Part shown: one piece after another, positions 13,063 to 44,378 of the stretch
Position numbering within the stretch: position 1 is the first letter of the stretch
Layout: every line of letters starts with the position of its first letter
Source of the DNA: Deltaproteobacteria bacterium
GTDB lineage: Bacteria; Desulfobacterota; Desulfuromonadia; Desulfuromonadales; Geopsychrobacteraceae
Reading direction: 5' to 3'
NCBI GenBank assembly: GCA_024279255.1
Contig: JAJRRT010000009.1
Span: 2,670-66,669, forward strand
Length of the DNA stretch: 64,000 bases
Notes under the pieces: generated by a model
The model's input: only the letters and a program-made list of their open reading frames with translations
Told to the model about the DNA's origin: nothing
Database searches by the model: none
Program-made: the position numbers and the translations under genes

Positions 13063-13081
13063 TTGATCGTTAAATAGTTAA

Positions 13082-13125
13082 AATCTAAAAAAGGACCCCG
13101 TCTCGACGAGGTCCTTTTTTAGATT
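13082..13125. terminator. Bidirectional terminator after ilvC
   Basis: AATCTAAAAAAGGACC/GGTCCTTTTTTAGATT inverted repeat. Confidence 0.85.
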
Positions 13126-13152
13126 CAGGCAGGTGAGCCTGTGCAATCGGGG

Positions 13153-13386
13153 CTAAGCGGACGGCATCTCTTCCGGAATCCTCGTCACCATCACTGGAAT
13201 TTTGGCGTTGTGCAAGATCTTCATCGTCGACGCACCGAGCAGCGCGTCATCCACCCCTTCCTGCAGCATGTAGATTTCAGTCAGATTCTGGTCATTGATA
13301 TCCGGGGGCTCATGGCTGTGGATGATGTGGGTTTTTGCTTCAACTTGTATCGGCCAACAGGTTCCCAGGTTACTGATATACTCTAC
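13153..13386 (-). pseudogene. Possible universal stress protein C-terminal remnant with no start codon
   Basis: Stop-to-stop frame ..QVEAKTHIIHSHEP..DALLGASTMKILHNAKIPVMVTR.. resembles the USP ending LLGS..xKVLxxAxxPVLVV. Confidence 0.4.
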
Positions 13387-13388
13387 CT

Positions 13389-13706
13389 ATGAAGAAACTT
13401 CAGACCTTTGATCTTTGGCAGCGTCCGTTAGCAGGTATGTTCAAGGAATTGCTGAGTGCAGAGGGGGTAGACTGTGTCGTTAAAAACGACCAGCTTTTTG
13501 CAGCCATGGGAGAGATCCCCTTTACGGAGTGTTACCCCGAACTCTGGATCATTGATGATGAAATCTATCCCAGGGCCAGGCTGTTACTCGATAGTTGGCT
13601 GGCAGCGAATGAATCTAACTGCGAAAGCTGGACATGCACGGTCTGTAGTGAGGTTTCAGAGGGACAGTTCGACGTTTGCTGGTCTTGTGGATGCCTGCAT
13701 CCATAG
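13389..13706 (+). CDS. DUF2007 (PII-like) domain protein with C-terminal Cys4 zinc finger
   Basis: KELLSAEGVDCVVKND..GEIPFTECYPELWI; WTCTVC..EGQFDVCWSCG. Confidence 0.75.
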   Translation: MKKLQTFDLWQRPLAGMFKELLSAEGVDCVVKNDQLFAAMGEIPFTECYPELWIIDDEIYPRARLLLDSWLAANESNCESWTCTVCSEVSEGQFDVCWSCGCLHP

Positions 13707-13987
13707 GTGTCAGTTCCTGATATGACATTTCGTTTAAATCAGAAGCCAAGAAAATATTGGATTCTCGTTCTCCTGTAGAGCAACTCCAGAAGTGTGTTGT
13801 GTTGACCGCTTGAACTTATAGCTTTCTTTTTCAACGTTGTTCCCTAGCATTGCGCTGCATATAATCGCATAGTAGCTTGGCAGGGATTGGTTGCATGGTT
13901 CAGACAGGTTCCTCAGGTTTTCCAGGATTCAAAATCATGGCAGCGTTTTAGTGAGTACCTTCAAGGTGTTTTGAAATGATAGGAGCT

Positions 13988-14018
13988 AAAAAAGCCGCCA
14001 AGATAACTCGGCGGCTTT
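13988..14018 (-). terminator. Terminator downstream of the cytochrome c gene
   Basis: AAAAAAGCCGCC/GGCGGCTTT hairpin; T tract on the minus strand. Confidence 0.75.
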
Positions 14019-14047
14019 AAATTTAATGACGGGTTTGTTTATAAACC

Positions 14048-14365
14048 TTACTTCACGTGGCACTCTTTACATTTTGTTGGACCATCAGACTTTTTGTGAC
14101 AGCTCTTGCATTGATCATGGAAGGCTTTCTTTGCCTTCGGAATGCCATCTTTAACGCCATGGCAGCCTGTACATTTAGGGGTTTCGGTTCCCTTGTGGTG
14201 ACATTCTGTGCAATCTGAGATTTTGCTTTGATGTTGTGCGTGAGCGAAGTTTATATCACCTATCTTTGCACTCATCTTGATATTTTTCGGTCCGTTAGCT
14301 GCGATGGCTATCATTGCCGTAGTAGCTACGAATCCAACAACAAGTAAAACGATTAGCTTCTTCAT
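14048..14365 (-). CDS. Periplasmic tetraheme cytochrome c3/c7 family protein
   Basis: Sec signal peptide; four CxxCH (CTECH, CTGCH, CKSCH, CKECH) and four further His; AGGAGG RBS. Confidence 0.93.
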   Translation of the reverse strand: MKKLIVLLVVGFVATTAMIAIAANGPKNIKMSAKIGDINFAHAQHQSKISDCTECHHKGTETPKCTGCHGVKDGIPKAKKAFHDQCKSCHKKSDGPTKCKECHVK

Positions 14366-14550
14366 GCGGATTTTCCTCCTTGACTGAATTGTCGGTAAGA
14401 GTGAACTCCGTGTAGAAGGAGTTCGTTGAACAGGGTTTGTTTGAGCTGCCTTTCTTCAAAAGAATAAGCAAATAGAGACAAAATTCAAGTTAAAAATCTG
14501 TATGCAATATGCCTTTCTGATATGTGAAAAGCATTTAAAAACAGACTGTT

Positions 14551-14581
14551 GCATGGGCTGTTGCATTGCAACAGCCCATGC
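14551..14581. repeat. 31-bp inverted repeat (perfect 15-bp arms, 1-nt centre)
   Basis: GCATGGGCTGTTGCA-T-TGCAACAGCCCATGC. Confidence 0.9.
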
Positions 14582-14774
14582 TCTCGTGAGTATCATGTGA
14601 ACCGCGGAGTTGAGAGCGCAAAAACATTTTCTGATAGTATTCACTCGTGAATGCAACATATGTATGGGGCCGGAATGCTTCTCAAAAAAAATAGTATTTT
14701 TTCTTCTCGCAACTGAATTAAAAGCTTGAGATGATGTTGGCCTTATTCATGATTTTGAAACTGAAAGTATACAA

Positions 14775-33911: not shown

Positions 33912-35170
33912 GCGCGCTACTTGGAGTTATCGCGCTGTTCGGTGCACCGCTCTTTGCGATTATTGCAGCCGGAGCGATGTGGGGGTTTTATTCCAGCGAG
34001 ATCGATTTAACCGTTATGGCAATCGAGCTCTATCGACTGGCGGAAATGCCGGTGCTGTTGGCCATTCCTCTGTTTACTTTTTCGGGTTATCTGCTTGGTG
34101 AGAGCGGAGCGCCCGGGCGACTGATGCGTCTGTCTAAAGCTTTTTTGGGATGGTTTCCTGGAGGGCTTGGCGTTGTTGCTCTGATCGCCTGTGCTTTTTT
34201 TACAGCATTTACTGGTGCCTCGGGAATCACCATTATTGCCCTTGGCGCCATTCTTTATCCGGCACTCGAACAAGCCGGTTACGAGAAAAATTTTAACCTC
34301 GGTTTGATCACGACCTCAGGAAGTCTCGGGTTGCTCTTTGCTCCTTCGTTGCCGCTCATTCTTTATGGGATCGTTGCACAGCAGGCCGGTGGAAATATCT
34401 CTATCAAACTTAATGAGCTGTTTCTCGCCGGAGCTTTGCCCGGGGTTTTGATGCTGGTGCTTCTGAGCGGTTACGTTGTCTACAAACGTCGCGGCAAGAA
34501 ATTGGGTGGCAAGGTCACTTTTGCAGAGATCAGACAGTCTCTGCGCGAGTCGATTTGGGAGTTGCCTCTGCCGTTTGTGGTATTAGGTGGGATTTACAGC
34601 GGTTATTTTGCTGTCAGCGAGGCCGCAGCAGTGACTGCCTGTTACGTGCTGCTTGTAGAAGTTTTTATCCTGCGCGAGATTTCTTTTCGTCAAGTACCGG
34701 TTATCATGCGTCAGTCGATGGTGCTGGTCGGCGGCATTTTGTTGATCCTCGGGGTTTCCCTTGCATCAACCAGTTATATGATCGACGCTGAAATTCCAGC
34801 CAAACTCTTTGAATATGTCCAATCCCATGTCGAAGGGCGCTTAACATTTCTGCTGCTCTTGAATATCTTTCTTTTACTCCTTGGCGCTATACTCGACATC
34901 TTTTCTGCGCTGGTTCTGGTGGTGCCACTGATTCTTCCCGTCGCACTCAGCTACGGTATAGATCCACTTCATCTGGGGATCATCTTTCTTGCCAATATGC
35001 AGATCGGTTACATTACTCCACCGGTCGGACTCAACCTGTTTATCGCCAGTTACCGCTTTGATGAGCCGGTATTGACCCTCTATAAGTCGACCTGGCCGTT
35101 TTTTCTGTTGCTGCTGGCCTCGGTTCTGATCATTACTTATGTGCCTTTCCTCTCCCTCTGGTTTCGCTAA
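33908..35170 (+). CDS. dctM: TRAP transporter large permease
   Basis: LLAIPLF, AFTGASG, GLLFAPS, GYITPPVGLNLF. Confidence 0.92.
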   Translation: MSALLGVIALFGAPLFAIIAAGAMWGFYSSEIDLTVMAIELYRLAEMPVLLAIPLFTFSGYLLGESGAPGRLMRLSKAFLGWFPGGLGVVALIACAFFTAFTGASGITIIALGAILYPALEQAGYEKNFNLGLITTSGSLGLLFAPSLPLILYGIVAQQAGGNISIKLNELFLAGALPGVLMLVLLSGYVVYKRRGKKLGGKVTFAEIRQSLRESIWELPLPFVVLGGIYSGYFAVSEAAAVTACYVLLVEVFILREISFRQVPVIMRQSMVLVGGILLILGVSLASTSYMIDAEIPAKLFEYVQSHVEGRLTFLLLLNIFLLLLGAILDIFSALVLVVPLILPVALSYGIDPLHLGIIFLANMQIGYITPPVGLNLFIASYRFDEPVLTLYKSTWPFFLLLLASVLIITYVPFLSLWFR

Positions 35171-35210
35171 AGCATGGTCAGTACAACAGGACTTCTGACA
35201 ATGGCTCAGT

Positions 35211-35978
35211 TTATGGTTCAGCCACTTTCTCCCATTTGAGTGAAGACGGATCGAAGCCTTTTTCAATGGTCGGTTTTATAATCTGAAAATAGGGTGACAC
35301 GTCGAAATCGCGCGGAGTAAACAGGCTGTGATGTCTGATGTGAAGGGTCTCCTGATAGCATTTTCTGCAACCAGGGTCTGTCGATTTTTCGATATTAATT
35401 TCGGGCAGTATCGGGTAGCCGACAGATTGAAATGCCTGCGCAATTAAAGATGAACAGATCGCCCGAGTCGGATCTCCGCTTCCTAATGCCAGTAACCTCC
35501 GTCGCCAACGGGTAGGTAGCAGCGGGATGGGGATCAGATAACGGGCAAGGTCGATAATATTCTTCAAATCATAACGTTGCCCGATTCGGGCAATAGCATA
35601 ATCACACAGACTTTTGATTTCAATATCTGGAAGGCCCACCGGTCGGCAAATGCGGGTGTGACTGCCAGAATAATCATTTAAGGGGACCGCACGAATCCCC
35701 TCGTTGACATCTGCTTCGATCAGGACCTGTGCCTCGCCCTCCTCGGTTGCAGGGCCCAAAGTGTCCCCGACATACAGGGTTGCATGCGACCAACTTGATT
35801 GCGTGAGGTACTTTATCGCTGTGCTGAAACGACTATTGCCAGCAATCAGCAGGACATCACCGGCCTTGAGTGAGGCGGAGAGCTTTTCAGGAAGGCTGGT
35901 CGAAACTTCGACGTTTTGAGCTTGTGGTTCGGAAAGGTGCCGCGCCAGTCTTTGTCCCGTTCCATGCAAAATATTCAC
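35211..35978 (-). CDS. YiiX/YebB-like permuted NlpC/P60 (papain-like) enzyme
   Basis: GDVLL, SSWSHA (His) before RAICSSLIAQAF (Cys), RIGQRYD. Confidence 0.8.
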   Translation of the reverse strand: MNILHGTGQRLARHLSEPQAQNVEVSTSLPEKLSASLKAGDVLLIAGNSRFSTAIKYLTQSSWSHATLYVGDTLGPATEEGEAQVLIEADVNEGIRAVPLNDYSGSHTRICRPVGLPDIEIKSLCDYAIARIGQRYDLKNIIDLARYLIPIPLLPTRWRRRLLALGSGDPTRAICSSLIAQAFQSVGYPILPEINIEKSTDPGCRKCYQETLHIRHHSLFTPRDFDVSPYFQIIKPTIEKGFDPSSLKWEKVAEP

Positions 35979-36053
35979 AATGTATATTCCCCATCCCTGC
36001 TTGCAGCTTTGAAGGCCTTGAATCGCACTATTGTGAGGTTTTTATCACTGTCA

Positions 36054-36410
36054 TCATAGCTTGAGCCATAGCCAGACTATTTGCCGTCGGATAGCGTCGA
36101 GTCGATCCCGATCTTTGAATAAGCTGGAAGCCGTCTTCAGCATCGGTTCAGCTTTCTCCGCAGTTTGAAGCGGCAGAGTTTTGCTCAAACTGCCATCGAA
36201 AGGCATCACCTTGCGCACGTCGGCGACAAAGCGCTGAGGCTTCACGGGGAAACTTTCGTCATCAGTCCCGCCGAGATCCGTGAAAAATGGTGGATTTACC
36301 ACATCGGGTCCGACATTGATAAGCAGATCCGAGCGAACGATGGCGCAATGGGTGTCGTTATAATCACAAAGGGCAGCAGCCCCTATGTACTGCGGATTAT
36401 TTTTGTTCAC
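36054..36410 (-). pseudogene. Chimeric remnant: two internal acetolactate synthase segments fused to an aldehyde dehydrogenase N-terminal segment
   Basis: PQYIGAAAL..H.AI..SDLLINVG.DVV.PPFF, then GTDDESFPVKPQRFVADVRKVMP (both ALS-like), then PFDGSL.K.LP.QTAE.AE.ML.TAS.LFKDRD (ALDH-like). Confidence 0.6.
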
Positions 36411-36440
36411 TACGCTCTTATCCCTCTAGAGTATTAAGAG

Positions 36441-36627
36441 CTTGTTCGTCAAGCGGCCGTAGTGGCGGCCATAAATGTAGCTCCCCGTTCATGGCGGTTG
36501 AGAATGAACTTGATGTTCGACTTACGCAGCGCTTCGGGAAAATCAAGATTCTTTTCGGCTGGAACACCGTAGTTAATTTCTACCTACTTGTTCTCCCGCG
36601 CTTGAACAACTAGGTCGAAGCATTCAT
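36441..36627 (-). pseudogene. Acetolactate synthase large subunit N-terminal remnant (frameshifts and stop)
   Basis: Reconstructed MNAS(D)LVVQARENK*VEINYGVPAEKNLDFPEALRKSNIKFILNRHERGATFMAAT(YGRLT); TPP-enzyme GVPxExNL and RHExGAxFMA motifs. Confidence 0.75.
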
Positions 36628-36696
36628 TTTGTTAACCCTTTATAGGCGATGGGTTATTGTCTCGGTGGGTTCTGTTTAAGGGGCAGAACCAAGACC

Positions 36697-37041
36697 TTAA
36701 AAGTTTTCGGATGAAGCACGATTCCAGACCTTTTGATAAAAGCCAGGTACTGGCTCCTGCAACAGCGCGCCGGGTTTAAGACAGGGATAAATATCCCTCA
36801 GCGGCTGGATCTTGCTCATTCCGGTGCGCCGATAGATATGCCAGTGCAGCCGTTCCCGATCACGACCGACAGCTGAAAGTCCCATCAGCTCAAGGGCCGC
36901 CTTGACAGTGGCATTTTGAAAGACGCAGTCATTAGAGCTATCGGTAGCAGTAGCCAGAGAAAGCCGCTGCTCCAGGTACCCAGGAGGACAACCTGTTCGC
37001 TGAGAACCAGCATGCTGAAAATAAACATCTGTCTTGACCAC
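36697..37041 (-). pseudogene. C-terminal remnant of an FMN-binding glutamate-synthase-family protein
   Basis: F.NATVKAALELMG..WHIYRR..IYP.LKPGALL..VP.FYQ..W.RASSENF resembles that family's C-terminus; N-terminal part degenerate. Confidence 0.55.
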
Positions 37042-37083
37042 TTCTCAAGCTTATTGCCCTCGCTTTCTGTCCGTTGATGCAGT

Positions 37084-37998
37084 TTAACTCCCTTCAGAAC
37101 AACTGGCGCCACCTGCAAAGCAAGAGTAACAACGGTGATGTCCGAGTAAGACGCGCTGTTTCATTGCGTCGTGCAGAGTATTTCCAAGATCATAATTTTC
37201 GACGTCATCAACAAGAGTGCAGGCGTAAACTCCGCATTGACCATTCTTCTTGACGATCATCTTGCTGAAGCTACACATGAATGTCGCGCGCTGCTCGGGG
37301 CTTATGAAGCGGGTCATACAGCTTTCGGTGATCTCCGCAACCTGGGGGAGCGAACCGGGCAGGTGAAACTCGGGGAACTTGATAATGAGTAAGTTTGCCG
37401 GTACTCCTGCGTTTTCAAAATAGGGTGCATAGGCTTGATCAACAGTGTCGCTGTCTTCGTCTGTCAACATCTGGCGGGCAATAGATACGCCGAAGCCCCC
37501 ACGGTGGAGACGGCCAAGGGTATCGAGTGCTTTTCTGAAATTACCCCGACCGCGCGATTCGTCATGTTTGACCGGGTCTGGATGATCCAGGCTGACCCGA
37601 AAGTTTAAAGGATTCGGCTTATCGCGCAATGGGAGGACTTCGCCTATTTGATTCATCAGCGGTTCGGTTGCGTTGGTCAAGACCAGACAGGGCCGATGCT
37701 CCAGAGCATAGTCGAGAATCTGAATGAACTCAGGGTTAACGAAGGGCTCACCGCCGGTGAACGAGAACTTCTTGACTCCAAGTTCGAGGGCTTCATCAAT
37801 AAAGCCTCGCGCCTCTTTCAGAGTCAAAAATTCGATTCGATTGTCGCCCGGCTTGGATCCTTCGAAACAGAAAGGGCAGCGCAGGTTGCAGTTGGTTCCG
37901 GTGTGAAACCAGAGTTCATCTAGTTTTTGTGGTTGGATATACCCACGTGGTTCATTTTGGCTGGTATTAAGCCATTCGTCAGAGCGTTGCATCTTCAT
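37084..37998 (-). CDS. Radical SAM protein with Cys-rich C-terminus
   Basis: CNLRCPFC cluster motif, FTGGEP, LTN, VSLD; tail FMC..YACTLVD..HHRCYSCFAGGASC. Confidence 0.9.
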   Translation of the reverse strand: MKMQRSDEWLNTSQNEPRGYIQPQKLDELWFHTGTNCNLRCPFCFEGSKPGDNRIEFLTLKEARGFIDEALELGVKKFSFTGGEPFVNPEFIQILDYALEHRPCLVLTNATEPLMNQIGEVLPLRDKPNPLNFRVSLDHPDPVKHDESRGRGNFRKALDTLGRLHRGGFGVSIARQMLTDEDSDTVDQAYAPYFENAGVPANLLIIKFPEFHLPGSLPQVAEITESCMTRFISPEQRATFMCSFSKMIVKKNGQCGVYACTLVDDVENYDLGNTLHDAMKQRVLLGHHRCYSCFAGGASCSEGS

Positions 37999-38644
37999 AA
38001 AAAAAGATCTCCCGGTGAATCTGCGTGTAGGCGACTCCGTGATCTTCCAGCCACTTGCTGGTTTCGTCGATCATGGTGTCGAGTCCGCAAAGGTAGTAGT
38101 GGATGTCGGTAGCAAGGGGGATCAGCTCCAACAGGCCCGTAACTCGCCCATGAAAGTGACTGCTGACTTCTTCCTGTGACAAGGCGAGACGAAAATTGTA
38201 AAGATTCTGTAGCTCCTTCAGGTTGAAGCCCTCCTCAAGTCGACGTACGCCGTAGAGGCAGAGTTCCGGTATCTGTAAAGGATAGCTGCGCAGGTAACTC
38301 AAAAAGGGGGCGATGCCGGTACCGGTAGCAATAAAAATGGAACGTTCTCCATTGACTGAGCGCCCGGGCCTGAACCAACCGAAGGGCGCACTTGCTTGCA
38401 CCAGATCTCCAGGCTTTCGCTGTGCTAACCAGTCGCTGACAAGACCGTTCGGTACGCGCCGTATCAAAAAACGCAGAATATCTTCTTCTGATCCGGCGGC
38501 AATGCTATAGGGGCGCGATTCATCGCCGTTATTAAATAGTGCGACACAGGCCCCAGGTTCGAATTGAACATCTCCACGTTCAACCTGTAACTCAAATAGC
38601 TCATCGGTTATGAAAATAACATTCAGGACAGTCAAAGTGTTCAT
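37979..38644 (-). CDS. Ferredoxin/flavodoxin-NADP+ reductase-family oxidoreductase
   Basis: RPYSIA (FAD), ATGTGIAPF (NAD(P)), YLCG, HREIF; 20-nt overlap with the radical SAM gene. Confidence 0.88.
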   Translation of the reverse strand: MNTLTVLNVIFITDELFELQVERGDVQFEPGACVALFNNGDESRPYSIAAGSEEDILRFLIRRVPNGLVSDWLAQRKPGDLVQASAPFGWFRPGRSVNGERSIFIATGTGIAPFLSYLRSYPLQIPELCLYGVRRLEEGFNLKELQNLYNFRLALSQEEVSSHFHGRVTGLLELIPLATDIHYYLCGLDTMIDETSKWLEDHGVAYTQIHREIFFYEDATL

Positions 38645-38794
38645 GGTTCTCTTTCAATGTCGTGCGAAACTTAGGTCAGGATCTATTTTGAGGGATATCT
38701 TATTTCTGAAACAGGGCCTTAAGTATAGCAGTCGTATGCTCGGGAGTGGCTTGTCGGACCGATTATCTCACCTTGAAGAGGTTTAAGTCTTTGT

Positions 38795-39248
38795 CTAAGT
38801 CCTCACGCTGGGTGTTTTTTTTGTACCGACAGTTGTTTTATCGCCAATCCAGAAACCGAGACAGCCGCCAGCAAGTACGGCAATGGTCAGATAGGGCAGC
38901 TTGGTGTATTGATGGATATCGCCGAGAAAGTGGGTATGGCCGCTTGATTCGGTGAAATAGAGCGCTGCAGCGATCATAGCCAGAATAAAGCTTGAAAGGT
39001 AGCTCCAGAGCGGAATGTTGTCACGTTTGCCCCATATTCCATAGTAGAAACCGAGGATCACGGCGTTCATCAGCGAACGGGCAAATATCCAGGTGGTCAC
39101 TTGAGAAAACGTGAGGGTTATCAAGCCGGACTGCCGACCTGTCATACTTACCCCTTGGAAAAAAAGCTTCTGCACTTTCAGCTTTGGGCGCGAGGAGGAC
39201 TGACGCCAGTGCAACGATGCCAGTGAAAACAGGAAGATAGTAGTCCAT
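38795..39248 (-). pseudogene. Solute:sodium symporter-like remnant with frameshift and large internal deletion
   Basis: ATG 39248 MDYYLPVFTGIVALASVLLAPKAESAEAFF; T7 run (39159-39165) shifts frame into QG..SQVTTWIFARSLMNAVILGFYYGIWG, which joins directly to a C-terminal-like KRDNIPLWSYL..HQYTKL segment. Confidence 0.6.
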
Positions 39249-39378
39249 TGATGAAAGCTCCGGATTAATGGATTGAAATTGAGGTCTGATGCTTTTTGGC
39301 TCAGCGTGATAAAGAGCCCTCTCCTTCCTTCTCAAATAGATATCGCAGGTAGAGAAATCAGAATCACGAAATTTAAGA

Positions 39379-41151
39379 TCATGGCGTAAGCGGTAGTGCC
39401 AGCAAGTGACTTTGCCCTTCACCATTGAGAATCGAGTCCTTGCGTGATAGCACAATGAGTGCGCGGCCTTGTCTGACAGCCAGCCCTTGGATTGGTTGTT
39501 CCAACTTTTCTCCTAGGGTTCCCTTAACAAAGCGGTTGTTTTTATATTTGATAACGGACAGCCAGCTTTCACTTCCCCCGAAATCTAAACCCGGAGCGCT
39601 GAAGGCTGACCTGTTTGCGGAAACGGCGATCAGCTCAAGTTGGCCATCACCATCGATGTCTGCTGCAACCTGTGGGACTTCAAATGCAACTGTGGTGAAG
39701 AGAGTATCTGCCTGCCCGGGGTTGACGTTGTAAGTTAATCGGGAAAGGCTTCCACCCATCTGCTTGGCAGACTCGTACAGCAACTTGCCATTGCTGATGA
39801 TATAAAGAATGCCCCTGCGCGTGTAGATGGTCTCTGAATTCCCGTCGCCAGTTAAATCTGCAAAGATGCTCCCCTGTACAGGGAACCCACGTGGCAAGTT
39901 GCGATCAAAAGAGCGTTCAGCATAGCCGCTATTGTCCAATATCAATTCCCGGATGGGGCCAAACACCGTGTCAAGATCAAACTTCTGTCCCAGTAAGGTC
40001 TCTTTGGCACCGTCACCATTCTGGTCAAAAGTTCCTAGGAGGTAGGGAATCTTTTCTGCGACTGCGACAAGCTGGTTATCGCTGAATCGATATATTGAAC
40101 TTACAAAAATAGTTTCTGCTGATGCGTTGTAAGAGAAGCTCTTTGTTGAGGATGTTGTCACGGCAAGGTAAAGGGGAGCGTCTGTTCCAGGTTGCCACCA
40201 GGCCAGCGCGTGAATTTTACCCTGCTGCTGATTTTTTACTGAAGAAAGCAATTTCATTTGATTGCTGATGTCAAAAATATGCAGTTCTGCCCCATCACTG
40301 GTCGCAACAAGGATCTGGTTATTGTTTGAGGTAACCTCTGCCGCTACGACCAGGCCTGATAATTCGCCAAGCGTACGGAACCCAGGGTAGTCAGCACTGT
40401 ATGTGATTTGGGTTTGATTTCTCTGGTTCGATTTGTTCCAGGAGACTGTTGCTGATGTGGCTGAGGTTGTGCTCAGAGGACTCGACACCCCTGATGCTGA
40501 GCCTTTGAAGTCCTGCGTGCTTAGAGCAGATGAGGTTTGAACGGTAGTTGCGAAAGAGCGGAGCAGTTGACCCGAACTATCATGGACTTTAAGTGCTGAA
40601 GCGGTTAACGCAAAAGTCAGTTGCGCGCTCGCAATAGCATGATCGGAAGAGGTTAATGTGTTTTTTACTGCAGGGTAAGCCCCTTGCCATTCGAGTGATG
40701 GTAAGGCGAGGGTGAGGCGCTCATACAGACCGAGGTCTGATTCTTTTTGAACTGTGAAGATAGCAGCCAAGTTCTGGTAGCGTCTGACGGAATCACCTTT
40801 TTGAGCATTTGAAATCGTTCCTAAGGGACTTGCCTGACTGAAGCCGGATCTGACCTTGGTGACTTTGAGAACTCCCTTGACGGTGTCGAGAGTCCCTAAT
40901 AGTGTTCCAGTGTCTGGATCGATAAGGTTTTCTCCGGGGGTGACGATGCTGAGCAAATCCCCAACCATGACACCCGTCGAAGCATCCAGGTTGATCAGGT
41001 AGTCATCACCCTGGATTGCGACAAGGGTTCCTGTGACCGGCTTGAAGTAGTTGGCCACATCAGCAATGACTCCAGCATATCCAACCGTCGGACCAGCCAA
41101 AATCAGGAACAAGAGAACAGACATCTTTAAAATGGTACGGCCAGAGTTCAT
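39379..41151 (-). CDS. Exported VCBS/FG-GAP repeat protein with N-terminal FlgT-C-like beta domain
   Basis: Signal peptide; GDLLSIVTPGENLIDPDTG; repeats DQNGDGAKETL, DLTGDGNSETI, DIDGDGQLELI. Confidence 0.78.
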   Translation of the reverse strand: MNSGRTILKMSVLLFLILAGPTVGYAGVIADVANYFKPVTGTLVAIQGDDYLINLDASTGVMVGDLLSIVTPGENLIDPDTGTLLGTLDTVKGVLKVTKVRSGFSQASPLGTISNAQKGDSVRRYQNLAAIFTVQKESDLGLYERLTLALPSLEWQGAYPAVKNTLTSSDHAIASAQLTFALTASALKVHDSSGQLLRSFATTVQTSSALSTQDFKGSASGVSSPLSTTSATSATVSWNKSNQRNQTQITYSADYPGFRTLGELSGLVVAAEVTSNNNQILVATSDGAELHIFDISNQMKLLSSVKNQQQGKIHALAWWQPGTDAPLYLAVTTSSTKSFSYNASAETIFVSSIYRFSDNQLVAVAEKIPYLLGTFDQNGDGAKETLLGQKFDLDTVFGPIRELILDNSGYAERSFDRNLPRGFPVQGSIFADLTGDGNSETIYTRRGILYIISNGKLLYESAKQMGGSLSRLTYNVNPGQADTLFTTVAFEVPQVAADIDGDGQLELIAVSANRSAFSAPGLDFGGSESWLSVIKYKNNRFVKGTLGEKLEQPIQGLAVRQGRALIVLSRKDSILNGEGQSHLLALPLTP

Positions 41152-41295
41152 GAAGATTGTCCCCTTTATCTCGTTGTCGTTAGAAAACCTTTTCGCCAGA
41201 AATCAGGGCGATGTGAAACGCTCTCTTAATAAACTGGCCACCAAGGCCGAATAATCTCTCGACCCTGGTGGCTGTTCATCTCCCAAAGTTGTTAC

Positions 41296-42717
41296 CTAAA
41301 ACTTATAACGAACGCTCGCCGTTGTACGGAAGATGTCATTGTCGGCATTACCGTCTACCGGGTTTGTGCCGCCAACCTCGAAGCGGTCCATGGCGTCCCC
41401 GGAGAACAGATAACCAGCATTGATCGACAGCGTAACATTCGGATAGAGATTGTAACTGGCATAGGCGTCGAGTTCCACTCCGACCTCATTATTCGACTGT
41501 TTGACTGAGAGATCGTCAGTATATTCAATGTCTTCAGCAGTCAGCATGTAGAGGACCGCTGCGCCAGTTTTGAGTTTTTTAGTCGTTTGATGATCGACGG
41601 CGATCTTATTCATGATCAAACCCTTGTCAAACAGGTCAGGGCGCTCGGTGAAGTAGACGTCGTCTGTATAGCCACCTTCCATCAACACGATACTGTCAAA
41701 CCGGTCGACATCGGTTGTAATAAAGGCGTTGAACTCGTCGTCATTAGGATCATCATCGCCTGAGGCGTACCAACCGGTATAGGTTACAGTGGTCTTGCCG
41801 AACTTGATTCCGACATCGGCATGTATGAGGAAGGCGGAGAGATCATAGTCGGCCGTCGCGGCCGTGATACCACTCAAGGTATCTGTAAATGCGACATTGT
41901 CAAAACTGCCGGTCTGGTACATCAGATCCCAGTTAACAAAGGCCGTTTTGTCGTCAATCGGCCTTGACCAGGAGCCGTCGGTTCCCAGGGTCGTAACATT
42001 GAAGTCGACATTGCCAAGTTTTTTAATTTGATAATTTTGAGAATCCATAGCGAAGGCCGCTGTATCACTGGTGCTTTGCCATTGGAAGAGGGCGAAGGTG
42101 CCGGCATTTAGGGCTCCCTGGGTAAATTCGTAACGACCCAGAATCGCATCAAGATCGTTGTCACCCCAATCATCAGCTGCTCCAGCGGTCGACCCGGTCA
42201 GCGCTTCCTTACCACGGACCCAGGCCAAGGTGTATTTGTCACCGCTTAACTGAACACCGGTGGCGGTTTCATTCCAGAGGAAGCTGTTAACCTTGAAGGG
42301 GAAGAGGCCGATTTTAACCCGTGCCTTGCTTTTGACGCTCGGAATCTGAAAATCGGTATAAGCCCAGCGGGTCTCAATATTGACTGCATCACCTGAGAAT
42401 CCGCCCCCTTCTGCTTTACTACTACCGCTACGTCCAAAGCGCACGGCACCGATTTCAACGGCAAAGACGCCCTTAACAGCGCCGTCGTTGCTGGTGGCTT
42501 CTGTCCAGAGGCGATACTTGATGCTGGCGAAGGAATCCTGACGGTCCTCAGTGTCGATCACGCCTTTTTGATCTGAGTTAAAAAACCCTTGTTGATTGGT
42601 ATACAAGCTGAAACGGTTATTGAGATCGCCATGGAAAACAAAATCAGCGGCCAATGCAGGTGTTGTGAAAAGTATCCCCAGTAGAAGAACAAGGCAAGAT
42701 TTGTAATATCTGTTCAT
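41296..42717 (-). CDS. Outer-membrane beta-barrel (porin-like, Asp-rich)
   Basis: Signal peptide ..PALA|A; alternating beta-strand pattern; YASGDDDPND loop; C-terminal ASVRYKF. Confidence 0.85.
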   Translation of the reverse strand: MNRYYKSCLVLLLGILFTTPALAADFVFHGDLNNRFSLYTNQQGFFNSDQKGVIDTEDRQDSFASIKYRLWTEATSNDGAVKGVFAVEIGAVRFGRSGSSKAEGGGFSGDAVNIETRWAYTDFQIPSVKSKARVKIGLFPFKVNSFLWNETATGVQLSGDKYTLAWVRGKEALTGSTAGAADDWGDNDLDAILGRYEFTQGALNAGTFALFQWQSTSDTAAFAMDSQNYQIKKLGNVDFNVTTLGTDGSWSRPIDDKTAFVNWDLMYQTGSFDNVAFTDTLSGITAATADYDLSAFLIHADVGIKFGKTTVTYTGWYASGDDDPNDDEFNAFITTDVDRFDSIVLMEGGYTDDVYFTERPDLFDKGLIMNKIAVDHQTTKKLKTGAAVLYMLTAEDIEYTDDLSVKQSNNEVGVELDAYASYNLYPNVTLSINAGYLFSGDAMDRFEVGGTNPVDGNADNDIFRTTASVRYKF

Positions 42718-43647: not shown

Positions 43648-43663
43648 TGTAAGCCAGATTACA
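43648..43663. promoter_or_regulatory. Candidate Crp-family operator upstream of the P460 gene
   Basis: Perfect TGTAA-N6-TTACA; overlaps the stop codon of the Crp gene. Confidence 0.4.
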
Positions 43664-44378
43664 GAGTGACCCTAACCTCCTGAATTTCTTGAGAATGTCT
43701 GTTGAAGAAATATTTCAATCCATGTAGATCCATGATCCTTATGGCTCGATATGAGGTTTTTATCAGTTCAAGTTTTTTCCATTCCGCTATCTGCTCGGCC
43801 ACCGCCTCTCGTGAGGCGCCGATCAGGTGGGCCAAATCTTTTTGGCTCAAGGGGATACGGACGCTACCGTCGGCTTCATTGATTCCATGACGTTGAGCCT
43901 GCCAGAGCAGGGCGACCACAAGCCGGTTCCCCAATGGTTGAAAAAGTAAATCCTCGATCCGCATCTCCAGTTCACGGCGTCTTAAACCGATTAGTTTGAT
44001 AACTTTAAGGGCCATTTCGGGATGTCGTTGCAGCAGACCTTCGAAGTCTGCAAGAGCGATTCTGCAGACTAAAGTGTCATCCAGCGCTTCGGCACTATGG
44101 GAACGATTTTCCTCTCCGACTAAAGAGAGCTCCCCAAAGATTTCGCCTGGTCCGAGGATATCGAGGATCATCTCTCGTCCTGATCCACTGGTCCGGGTTA
44201 ATTTGACCCGCCCCTGTTTAATGAGATAAATATCGTCGCTGACCTCCTCTGCAAAAAAAAGTTTGGAGTGACGATTGCAGGTAAACATCTCGCTACGGTC
44301 GGCAATTTCCTGCTGTTCTGCGTCTTCCAGCCAGGAGAAGAGGTTGGTGTGCTTGATGTACCAGAGCTGGGTTTGCAT
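43659..44378 (-). CDS. Crp/Fnr-family transcriptional regulator
   Basis: cNMP pocket PGEIFGELSL..RSHSAEA; HTH LSQKDLAHLIGASREAV; no FNR Cys cluster. Confidence 0.92.
   Translation of the reverse strand: MQTQLWYIKHTNLFSWLEDAEQQEIADRSEMFTCNRHSKLFFAEEVSDDIYLIKQGRVKLTRTSGSGREMILDILGPGEIFGELSLVGEENRSHSAEALDDTLVCRIALADFEGLLQRHPEMALKVIKLIGLRRRELEMRIEDLLFQPLGNRLVVALLWQAQRHGINEADGSVRIPLSQKDLAHLIGASREAVAEQIAEWKKLELIKTSYRAIRIMDLHGLKYFFNRHSQEIQEVRVTL

Follow-up and report, generated by a model that had tools for sequence, protein, structure and literature searches.

The window analysed here is a stretch of 64,000 nucleotides (nt) of contig JAJRRT010000009.1, from a Deltaproteobacteria bacterium of the order Desulfuromonadales (assembly GCA_024279255.1), and all positions are counted from its first letter. 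On its minus strand two intact open reading frames (ORFs) form the gene pair of interest, one coding for an enzyme of the radical S-adenosylmethionine (SAM) type with 304 amino acids (aa), hereafter c0 (37084..37998), and the other for an FNR-like flavoprotein of 221 aa, hereafter c3 (37979..38644). As read directly from the sequence, the end of the c3 gene with its stop codon overlaps the start of the c0 gene by 20 nt (37979..37998, minus strand), an arrangement implying translational coupling of the two. A radical SAM gene with a CxxxCxxC motif and its 20-nt overlap with a reductase gene had both been put forward in a preliminary description of this DNA, and both are confirmed from the ORFs and from the matches to PF04055, PF00970 and PF00175.

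In c0, PF04055 is matched at 68 bits (gathering cutoff 29.5), the CxxxCxxC motif read in the translation corresponds to C37/C41/C44 (37867-37890, minus strand), and a GGEP-type SAM-binding motif, FTGGEPF, is invariant among homologues. Together these features place the protein in the radical SAM superfamily. It ends in a Cys-rich tail running from C242 to C300 (37099-37275, minus strand). When 45 homologues of 65-88% identity are aligned, C104, C227, C242, C260, C290, C293 and C300, all seven of which lie apart from the radical SAM triad, never vary, hence the tail, which had already been noticed in the preliminary description, is real and a conserved feature.

The partner c3 consists of a flavin adenine dinucleotide (FAD)-binding barrel and an NAD(P)-binding domain, with matches to PF00970 at 32.1 bits (cutoff 21.1) and to PF00175 at 27.7 bits (cutoff 22), and its translation contains RPYS, GTGIAPF and YLCG, motifs of FNR-like flavoproteins. 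Among proteins of solved structure it comes closest to the FNR modules of benzoate dioxygenase reductase and T4moF, to bacterial FNRs and to the E. coli flavodoxin reductase. For comparison, 49 genome loci as well as metagenome loci were fetched and their ORFs clustered, markers being scored on 50 loci within 7 kb of c0. With 383 hits the c3 family is small, and none of the fetched loci has c3 anywhere but next to c0. The pair recurs in 20 fetched loci: c3 stands directly upstream of c0 in 14 genome loci (13/50 by ORF clustering), and also in L001, L057-L059, L062 and L063, where the genes overlap in 6/6 cases, by 20 nt in L062 and L063, 17 nt in L059, 14 nt in L057, 11 nt in L001 and 4 nt in L058. 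The pair is carried, among others, by Desulfuromusa, Geopsychrobacter and Pelobacter seleniigenes, by Lentisphaeria and Kiritimatiellae and by a Spirochaetota metagenome-assembled genome; Desulfuromusa kysingii, Geopsychrobacter electrodiphilus and Pelobacter seleniigenes are cultured hosts. The coupling of reductase and radical SAM enzyme is indeed a conserved module, its overlapping form being present in several phyla.

General reducing systems of radical SAM enzymes are flavodoxin or ferredoxin together with an NADPH reductase (E. coli Fpr), and Dph3-Cbr1 for Dph1-Dph2. The pair resembles them in that an FNR-superfamily flavoprotein would bring the electrons of NAD(P)H, and E. coli Fpr (1fdr) is a detectable homologue of c3. 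In contrast to these systems, the c3 gene is dedicated and overlaps that of the enzyme, and it has no neighbouring gene for a flavodoxin or ferredoxin intermediary.

Relation of the radical SAM protein to ArsS

A scan of c0 against NCBIfam gave no family above its cutoff, the best match being the Rv1681/MoeX family (NF049973) at 89.2 bits for a cutoff of 380. The tail had been said in the preliminary description to recall loosely that of ArsS, the arsenosugar-type radical SAM protein, and this resemblance is real. Indeed, in BLASTP against the annotated ArsS of an Acinetobacter plasmid c0 is 23% identical over aa 21-300 (E 4e-14), and hhalign gives a probability of 97.6% over 273 columns. Near the C-terminus, HHRCYSCFAG-GASC of c0 aligns with DHCYGCTAGQGSSC of ArsS, the motif CxxCxAGxxSC being common to both, and C242, C260, C290, C293 and C300 fall on ArsS cysteines in pairwise as well as profile alignments. 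Identity within the c0 family is 50-55% across phyla, and two ArsS proteins are 60% identical to each other. On these sequence grounds c0 is a full-length remote homologue of ArsS that stands outside the ArsS family as curated models delimit it. The two are alike in size, in CxxxCxxC, in the tail motif and, as far as the relatives of the window are concerned, in the genomic slot that they occupy. They differ in that neither of the ArsS cassettes examined has a coupled FNR-like partner, whereas c0 is coupled to one in Desulfuromonadales, Lentisphaeria, Kiritimatiellae and one Spirochaetota locus.

The comparison was extended to ArsL, the noncanonical radical SAM enzyme of arsinothricin biosynthesis, which likewise makes a C-As bond, in partnership with an ArsM methyltransferase. 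However, ArsL transfers a 3-amino-3-carboxypropyl group, was not matched by c0 in the NCBIfam scan and has another gene context.

The AlphaFold2 model of c0 (pLDDT 83.9, pTM 0.86) has as its closest PDB folds SkfB (6efn), BlsE (7vob) and MoaA (1tv7), with TMq of 0.56-0.60 and E of 4e-10 to 3e-8. In common with them it has a partial TIM barrel and, after it, a C-terminal beta-hairpin domain that bears cysteines, but identity to c0 is 16-19% and c0 stands in no peptide or nucleotide-cofactor context. A search of PDB sequences with c0 returned only generic N-terminal matches, to viperin, SkfB and MoaA, and the SPASM domain (PF13186) was not detected by the Pfam scan. Judging from the model, the C-terminal Cys domain is twitch-like and could possibly hold an auxiliary cluster. 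A role in the maturation of ribosomally synthesised and post-translationally modified peptides was considered and rejected, given that no precursor-peptide context was found and that the neighbours are small-molecule enzymes.

The c0 family is large, clustering at 90% identity giving more than 7,500 clusters and clustering at 50% identity about 80 with E <= 1e-30; a literature search on it found nothing. One member, P0251, is 44% identical to c0 and ends in a TGA codon (L065, 1318-1320) exactly at the invariant C300, which recalls the selenocysteine form of ArsS. The parallel was set aside as unsupported, the downstream RNA having no SECIS-like stability (z -0.70).

Cassettes and fusions in relatives

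In 35/50 loci at least one core cassette marker is found within 7 kb of c0, and a canonical arsS is found within that distance in 0/50. The canonical cassettes of the Acinetobacter and Burkholderia glumae plasmids hold genes for a YiiX-like hydrolase, arsS, DedA/FAD-oxidoreductase, DUF547, TIGR04283, TIGR04282, a methyltransferase, PHO4 and mtnP. Much of this set recurs around c0. The gammaproteobacterial c0 loci carry TIGR04282-like, DedA, pyridine-nucleotide disulfide oxidoreductase (PNDR) and TIGR04283-like genes followed by c0, and a 2Fe-2S ferredoxin gene lies nearby instead of c3. Among c0 neighbours, TIGR04282 is matched at 124 bits (cutoff 134) and TIGR04283 at 177 bits (cutoff 182). 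The clearest case in the Desulfuromonadales is Geopsychrobacter electrodiphilus, in which DedA/FAD-oxidoreductase, DUF547, symporter-like, metallophosphoesterase, glutaredoxin and OsmC-hydrolase genes accompany the FNR-like and c0 genes. An ArsM-like methyltransferase gene adjoins c0 in Kiritimatiellae, Pontiella and other loci, the best match of such a neighbour being the arsenite methyltransferase model NF008823 at 165 bits (cutoff 263), and peroxiredoxin-like, extracytoplasmic function (ECF) sigma factor and AhpD-like genes are also found beside c0.

Of the cassette genes, the window has kept one that can be recognised, a YiiX/YebB-like permuted papain-fold hydrolase of 255 aa (PF05708), which is intact on the minus strand at 35211..35978. 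It is 48% identical to the hydrolase encoded beside arsS on the Acinetobacter plasmid and 56% identical to the one encoded two genes from arsS on the Burkholderia glumae plasmids, and is probably a cassette partner of the pair. The term self-contained, applied earlier to the two genes, does not hold for the relatives, where the pair is part of a larger arsenosugar-type cassette.

Fusion proteins were sought among representatives of the c0 family, the percentages that follow giving the identity of the c0 part to the window protein. An ArsM-like methyltransferase precedes c0 in P0242 (58%) and P0257 (43%) and follows it in P0244 (49%). The two are hence joined in both orders, which ties c0 to a methylation step on the same substrate. 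In P0287 a c0-like part (38%) is preceded by a TIGR04282 domain that scores above its cutoff (163.6 bits for 134). A metallophosphoesterase precedes the c0-like part in P0273 and P0277 (39%), and an HD 5'-deoxynucleotidase-like domain follows it in P0300 (35%); these fusions fit a nucleoside-like product. Finally, P0310 joins a pyridine-nucleotide oxidoreductase (Pyr_redox) to a c0-like enzyme (33%). The substrate had been called unknown in the preliminary description, and the fusions to ArsM-like methyltransferases and to a TIGR04282 domain now point to a methylated metalloid.

Several further features of these loci were observed. Cassettes with ArsS as well as c0-like genes repeatedly contain another radical SAM protein, one of about 460 aa (L061, 9983-11380; L056, 6571-7950); its Burkholderia and Roseomonas copies are 52% identical, and a fragment of it lies directly after c0 in L063 (2887-3102). 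In loci of the Pontiella type (L022, 6389-6892; L018, L023 and L024) an MsrB (SelR) gene stands directly upstream of c0 in the place of the FNR-like one, adding to the thiol and oxidative-repair theme of the cassettes. On plasmid pHP-187 of Marinobacter adhaerens HP15 (L054, 8001-8886) an unannotated c0 homologue of 53% identity, which matches in two pieces and is probably frameshifted, lies next to a sodium:solute symporter gene.

Proposed function and competing readings

ArsS adds the 5'-deoxyadenosyl radical of SAM to dimethylarsenite, DMAs(III), giving 5'-deoxy-5'-dimethylarsinoyladenosine (DDMAA), the first committed arsenosugar intermediate, and the As-centred radical re-reduces the cluster, the reaction being redox-neutral after priming (PMC13598754; bioRxiv 10.64898/2026.04.29.721666). 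In light of the homology to ArsS, the shared cassette slot and the fusions, we infer that c0 transfers an adenosyl group to a methylated metalloid. The evidence inclines, if modestly, towards an ArsS-like adenosyl transferase that acts on a methylated arsenical and receives its priming electrons from an NAD(P)H reductase of its own. The data themselves show the anatomy of the pair, its homology, coupling, cassette context and fusions and the selection on it; the substrate, the chemistry of adenosyl transfer and a direct electron transfer from the flavoprotein are inferred.

In such a mechanism, c3 would take a hydride from NAD(P)H onto its FAD and hand single electrons to the iron-sulfur clusters of c0, possibly by way of an auxiliary cluster held by the C-terminal cysteines. 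The reduced CxxxCxxC cluster would then cleave SAM, and the resulting 5'-deoxyadenosyl radical would add to a methylated As(III) species, or to a close metalloid analogue, at its lone pair. The As-centred radical would give the electron back, so that reductant would be needed mainly for priming. In the relatives, the product would pass to neighbouring enzymes for nucleoside-like compounds, that is, an enzyme of the methylthioadenosine (MTA)-phosphorylase type, a metallophosphoesterase or HD enzyme, and TIGR04282/TIGR04283 transferases. In the genome of the window the operon partners have decayed, with the pair and the nearby YiiX-like hydrolase being kept by purifying selection.

A number of observations weigh against this proposal. 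On the ArsS model TIGR04167, c0 reaches 52.1 bits where 300 are required, with only aa 21-173 aligned; DUF3641 (PF12345), which a true ArsS matches at 192 bits, was not detected in c0 at E <= 0.01; and identity to ArsS is just 22-26%, so the chemistry may differ. No iron-sulfur domain was found in c3, and a flavin would be an unproven direct reductant for a low-potential [4Fe-4S] cluster. Moreover, given that ArsS is redox-neutral after priming, the need for a dedicated reductase is not obvious. Apart from the YiiX-like gene, the 64-kb window holds no ArsM-like, TIGR04282/3, DedA/PNDR, DUF547 or PHO4 gene, and the names of the cassettes rest on annotation by association.

Some of these points also speak for a different chemistry or element within the same pathway family, such as selenium, tellurium or antimony, monomethyl or inorganic As(III), or another radical step on an organoarsenical. 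In that event c0 would not be the functional equivalent of ArsS. We regard this as rather improbable. It would agree with the low identity to ArsS (22-26%) and a C-terminal domain too diverged for PF12345, with ArsM-like neighbours scoring 165-193 bits, below the arsenite-methyltransferase cutoff of 263, with the recurrence of the ~460-aa radical SAM protein in some cassettes, and with the presence of Pelobacter seleniigenes among the hosts and of frequent thiol-redox genes in the cassettes. However, a canonical arsS is present within 7 kb of c0 in 0/50 loci, which suggests replacement of ArsS by c0 and not an added step, each of the methyltransferases, fused or neighbouring, has an arsenite or ArsM model as its best NCBIfam match, and the fusions to nucleotide-processing domains fit an adenosylated product.

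It is also conceivable, and in our judgement unlikely, that c3 is not the electron donor to the c0 cluster and has another redox task in the pathway, for example the reduction of a pentavalent arsenical, a disulfide relay or a quinone, being co-translated as a sequential step. The protein is without the 2Fe-2S domain with which BenC, MmoC and T4moF, the nearest of its relatives, deliver single electrons, 37/50 c0 loci have no c3-type gene nearby, and the turnover of ArsS is redox-neutral. On the other hand, the overlap with c0 is conserved in 6/6 loci with coordinates checked, c3 occurs only beside c0 in the fetched loci and its 383-hit family appears confined to that association. Furthermore, P0310 joins another kind of reductase domain to a c0-like enzyme, a ferredoxin gene is present in a similar role in related cassettes, and the E. 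coli flavodoxin reductase is among the homologues of c3.

No arsenite methyltransferase of the host's own is encoded at the locus. The pair may be thought of as a stand-alone resistance module, in which c0 would adenosylate toxic trivalent methylarsenicals released by neighbouring microbes, driven by NAD(P)H through c3. This has a low probability in our view. If true, it would be a new kind of organoarsenical detoxification, and c0 the first radical SAM enzyme known to have a flavin reductase all to itself, with flavodoxin and ferredoxin bypassed.

One radical SAM family, ArsS, is known for the synthesis of arsenosugars and arsenolipids, a process that to our knowledge has been studied mainly in cyanobacteria and algae. 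The c0 family is widespread in anaerobic marine and sediment lineages, among them Desulfuromonadales, Kiritimatiellae, Lentisphaeria and marine Gammaproteobacteria, and the comparisons presented here suggest that anaerobic marine bacteria build carbon-arsenic compounds with an unstudied enzyme family. Should c0 form C-As bonds under the ArsS-like proposal, surveys of arsS genes would miss a large share of the environmental capacity for complex organoarsenicals. The overlapping FNR-like partner also offers a simple test case for the in vivo reduction of a radical SAM enzyme by a dedicated NAD(P)H-dependent protein. The feature described here is an ArsS-like family with a dedicated reductase, in a locus that is locally decaying.

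Decayed flanks and selection on the pair

The neighbours of the pair had been described as wrecked on each side. Comparison with intact orthologues bears this out for the symporter, the GltS-like gene and the acetolactate synthase (ALS)-like gene; for the aldehyde dehydrogenase (ALDH), which had been listed with them, no remnant was found in the window. The nearest relative, L062 (89.6% nucleotide identity), has the three genes intact, the order there being symporter, FNR-like, radical SAM, GltS-like and ALS-like.

The symporter-like membrane protein, c6, is represented upstream of c3 by a sodium:solute-symporter-like pseudogene (38804..39248, minus strand), delimited by tblastn with the intact c6 of L008, L009, L013, L059 and L062. 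An intact orthologue matches PF00474 and the protein has about 460 aa in relatives; the remnant keeps aa 1-73 and aa 379-459 only, about 305 aa (about 915 nt) having been lost internally between two WG codon pairs. A frameshift is also present in a run of seven T (39159-39165). In a near-identical strain of metagenome run X2 there are six T at this place and the frame is restored, therefore the frameshift either is polymorphic or may be an error in a homopolymer. The internal loss of 305 aa does not depend on it.

Downstream of c0 lie the remnants of a GltS-like flavin mononucleotide (FMN) protein gene (36700..37049, minus strand), delimited with the gene map of L062 and by blastn and tblastn of L062 against the window. 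It has cleanly lost 1235 nt of its interior, the ends of the deletion meeting at 36922/36923, the copy of L062 being intact (529 aa, PF01645). Further out, tblastn with the proteins of L026, L063 and L062 located the remnants of an ALS-like thiamine-diphosphate enzyme (36200..36616, minus strand), corresponding to aa 5-49 and aa 237-288, plus a third, short fragment around aa 355-372, of a protein that has 551 aa in L026. The three wrecks are recent, to judge from the comparison with intact orthologues. A metallophosphoesterase and a DedA gene had also been considered as lost between symporter and reductase, and this proved wrong, the nearest relative L062 being without them too.

In order to estimate selection on the pair, L062 was used as the reference for nonsynonymous (dN) and synonymous (dS) divergence, the Desulfuromusa relatives being unusable with saturated dS (>1). 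For c0, dN is 0.029 and dS 0.26-0.34, giving an omega (dN/dS) of 0.08-0.11, and for c3, dN is 0.047 and dS 0.18-0.24, giving an omega of 0.20-0.26. Neither gene has indels, and the lengths of both are equal in the window and L062. With L063 as outgroup, Tajima relative-rate tests count 8 vs 7 changes in c0 (p = 0.80) and 6 vs 4 in c3 (p = 0.53), hence the window branch shows no excess of amino-acid changes in either protein.

The runs found to hold the sequence are of metagenomic DNA or of unknown type only. Two metagenomes, X1 and X2, contain the window strain at about 25x depth. In X2, which is from a hydrothermal vent, a relative of 90-95% identity is present at 600-1200x as seen over 34500-40500; it keeps the pair, the YiiX-like gene and the TRAP transporter genes, and it is exactly in the pseudogene flanks that it diverges. 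The near-identical strain differs from the window by indels in the flanks only (36064, 38719 and 39159). Purifying selection acts on the c0-c3 pair even as its operon partners decay, as the preliminary description had suspected, and a dN/dS near 1, the sign of decay, was not seen. That the pair is the last, functionless and as yet unmutated part of a dying operon would accord with the wrecking of both operon neighbours and with the lack in the window of the TetR regulator and cassette genes of relatives, but it is very improbable in view of an omega of 0.08-0.26 at unsaturated dS without rate excess on the window branch, of the freedom from indels over 1.56 kb between flanks with 1235-nt and ~915-nt deletions, of the retention of all family-invariant residues, and of a far more abundant co-occurring relative that keeps the same pair.

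The surroundings had been called a field of pseudogenes, which is overstated for the window, 88.7% of which is filled by non-nested ORFs of at least 90 aa. The next genes outward from the wrecks are intact, namely those for the YiiX-like hydrolase and a TRAP transporter as well as two ORFs, one lipoprotein-like (590 aa) and the other porin-like. An Rfam scan of the window gave no match, and promoter and terminator scans were at or below the shuffled expectation. A stretch of 1.7 kb at 13063-14774 has no ORF of at least 110 aa and may be a decayed gene, perhaps the ALDH of the preliminary description.

The 590-aa ORF, with a weak FG-GAP match, and the porin-like ORF, of 473 aa and without a Pfam family, occupy 39379-42717 on the minus strand, between the symporter remnant and two genes that lie 4-5 kb upstream of the pair; they are not at the equivalent position in the fetched relatives. 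The two upstream genes, both on the minus strand, code for a cytochrome P460 (43007-43495) and a Crp/FNR-type regulator (43659-44378). A role of the pair in nitrosative stress, suggested by these Crp-like and P460 genes, was dropped, a Crp-type regulator adjoining the radical SAM gene in 5/50 loci and P460 in 2/50 (L002 and L015), with cassette markers dominating. The P460 and Crp/FNR-type genes may form a linked regulatory or nitrogen-oxide module of their own, and a truncated P460 copy also lies at the contig end of L009.

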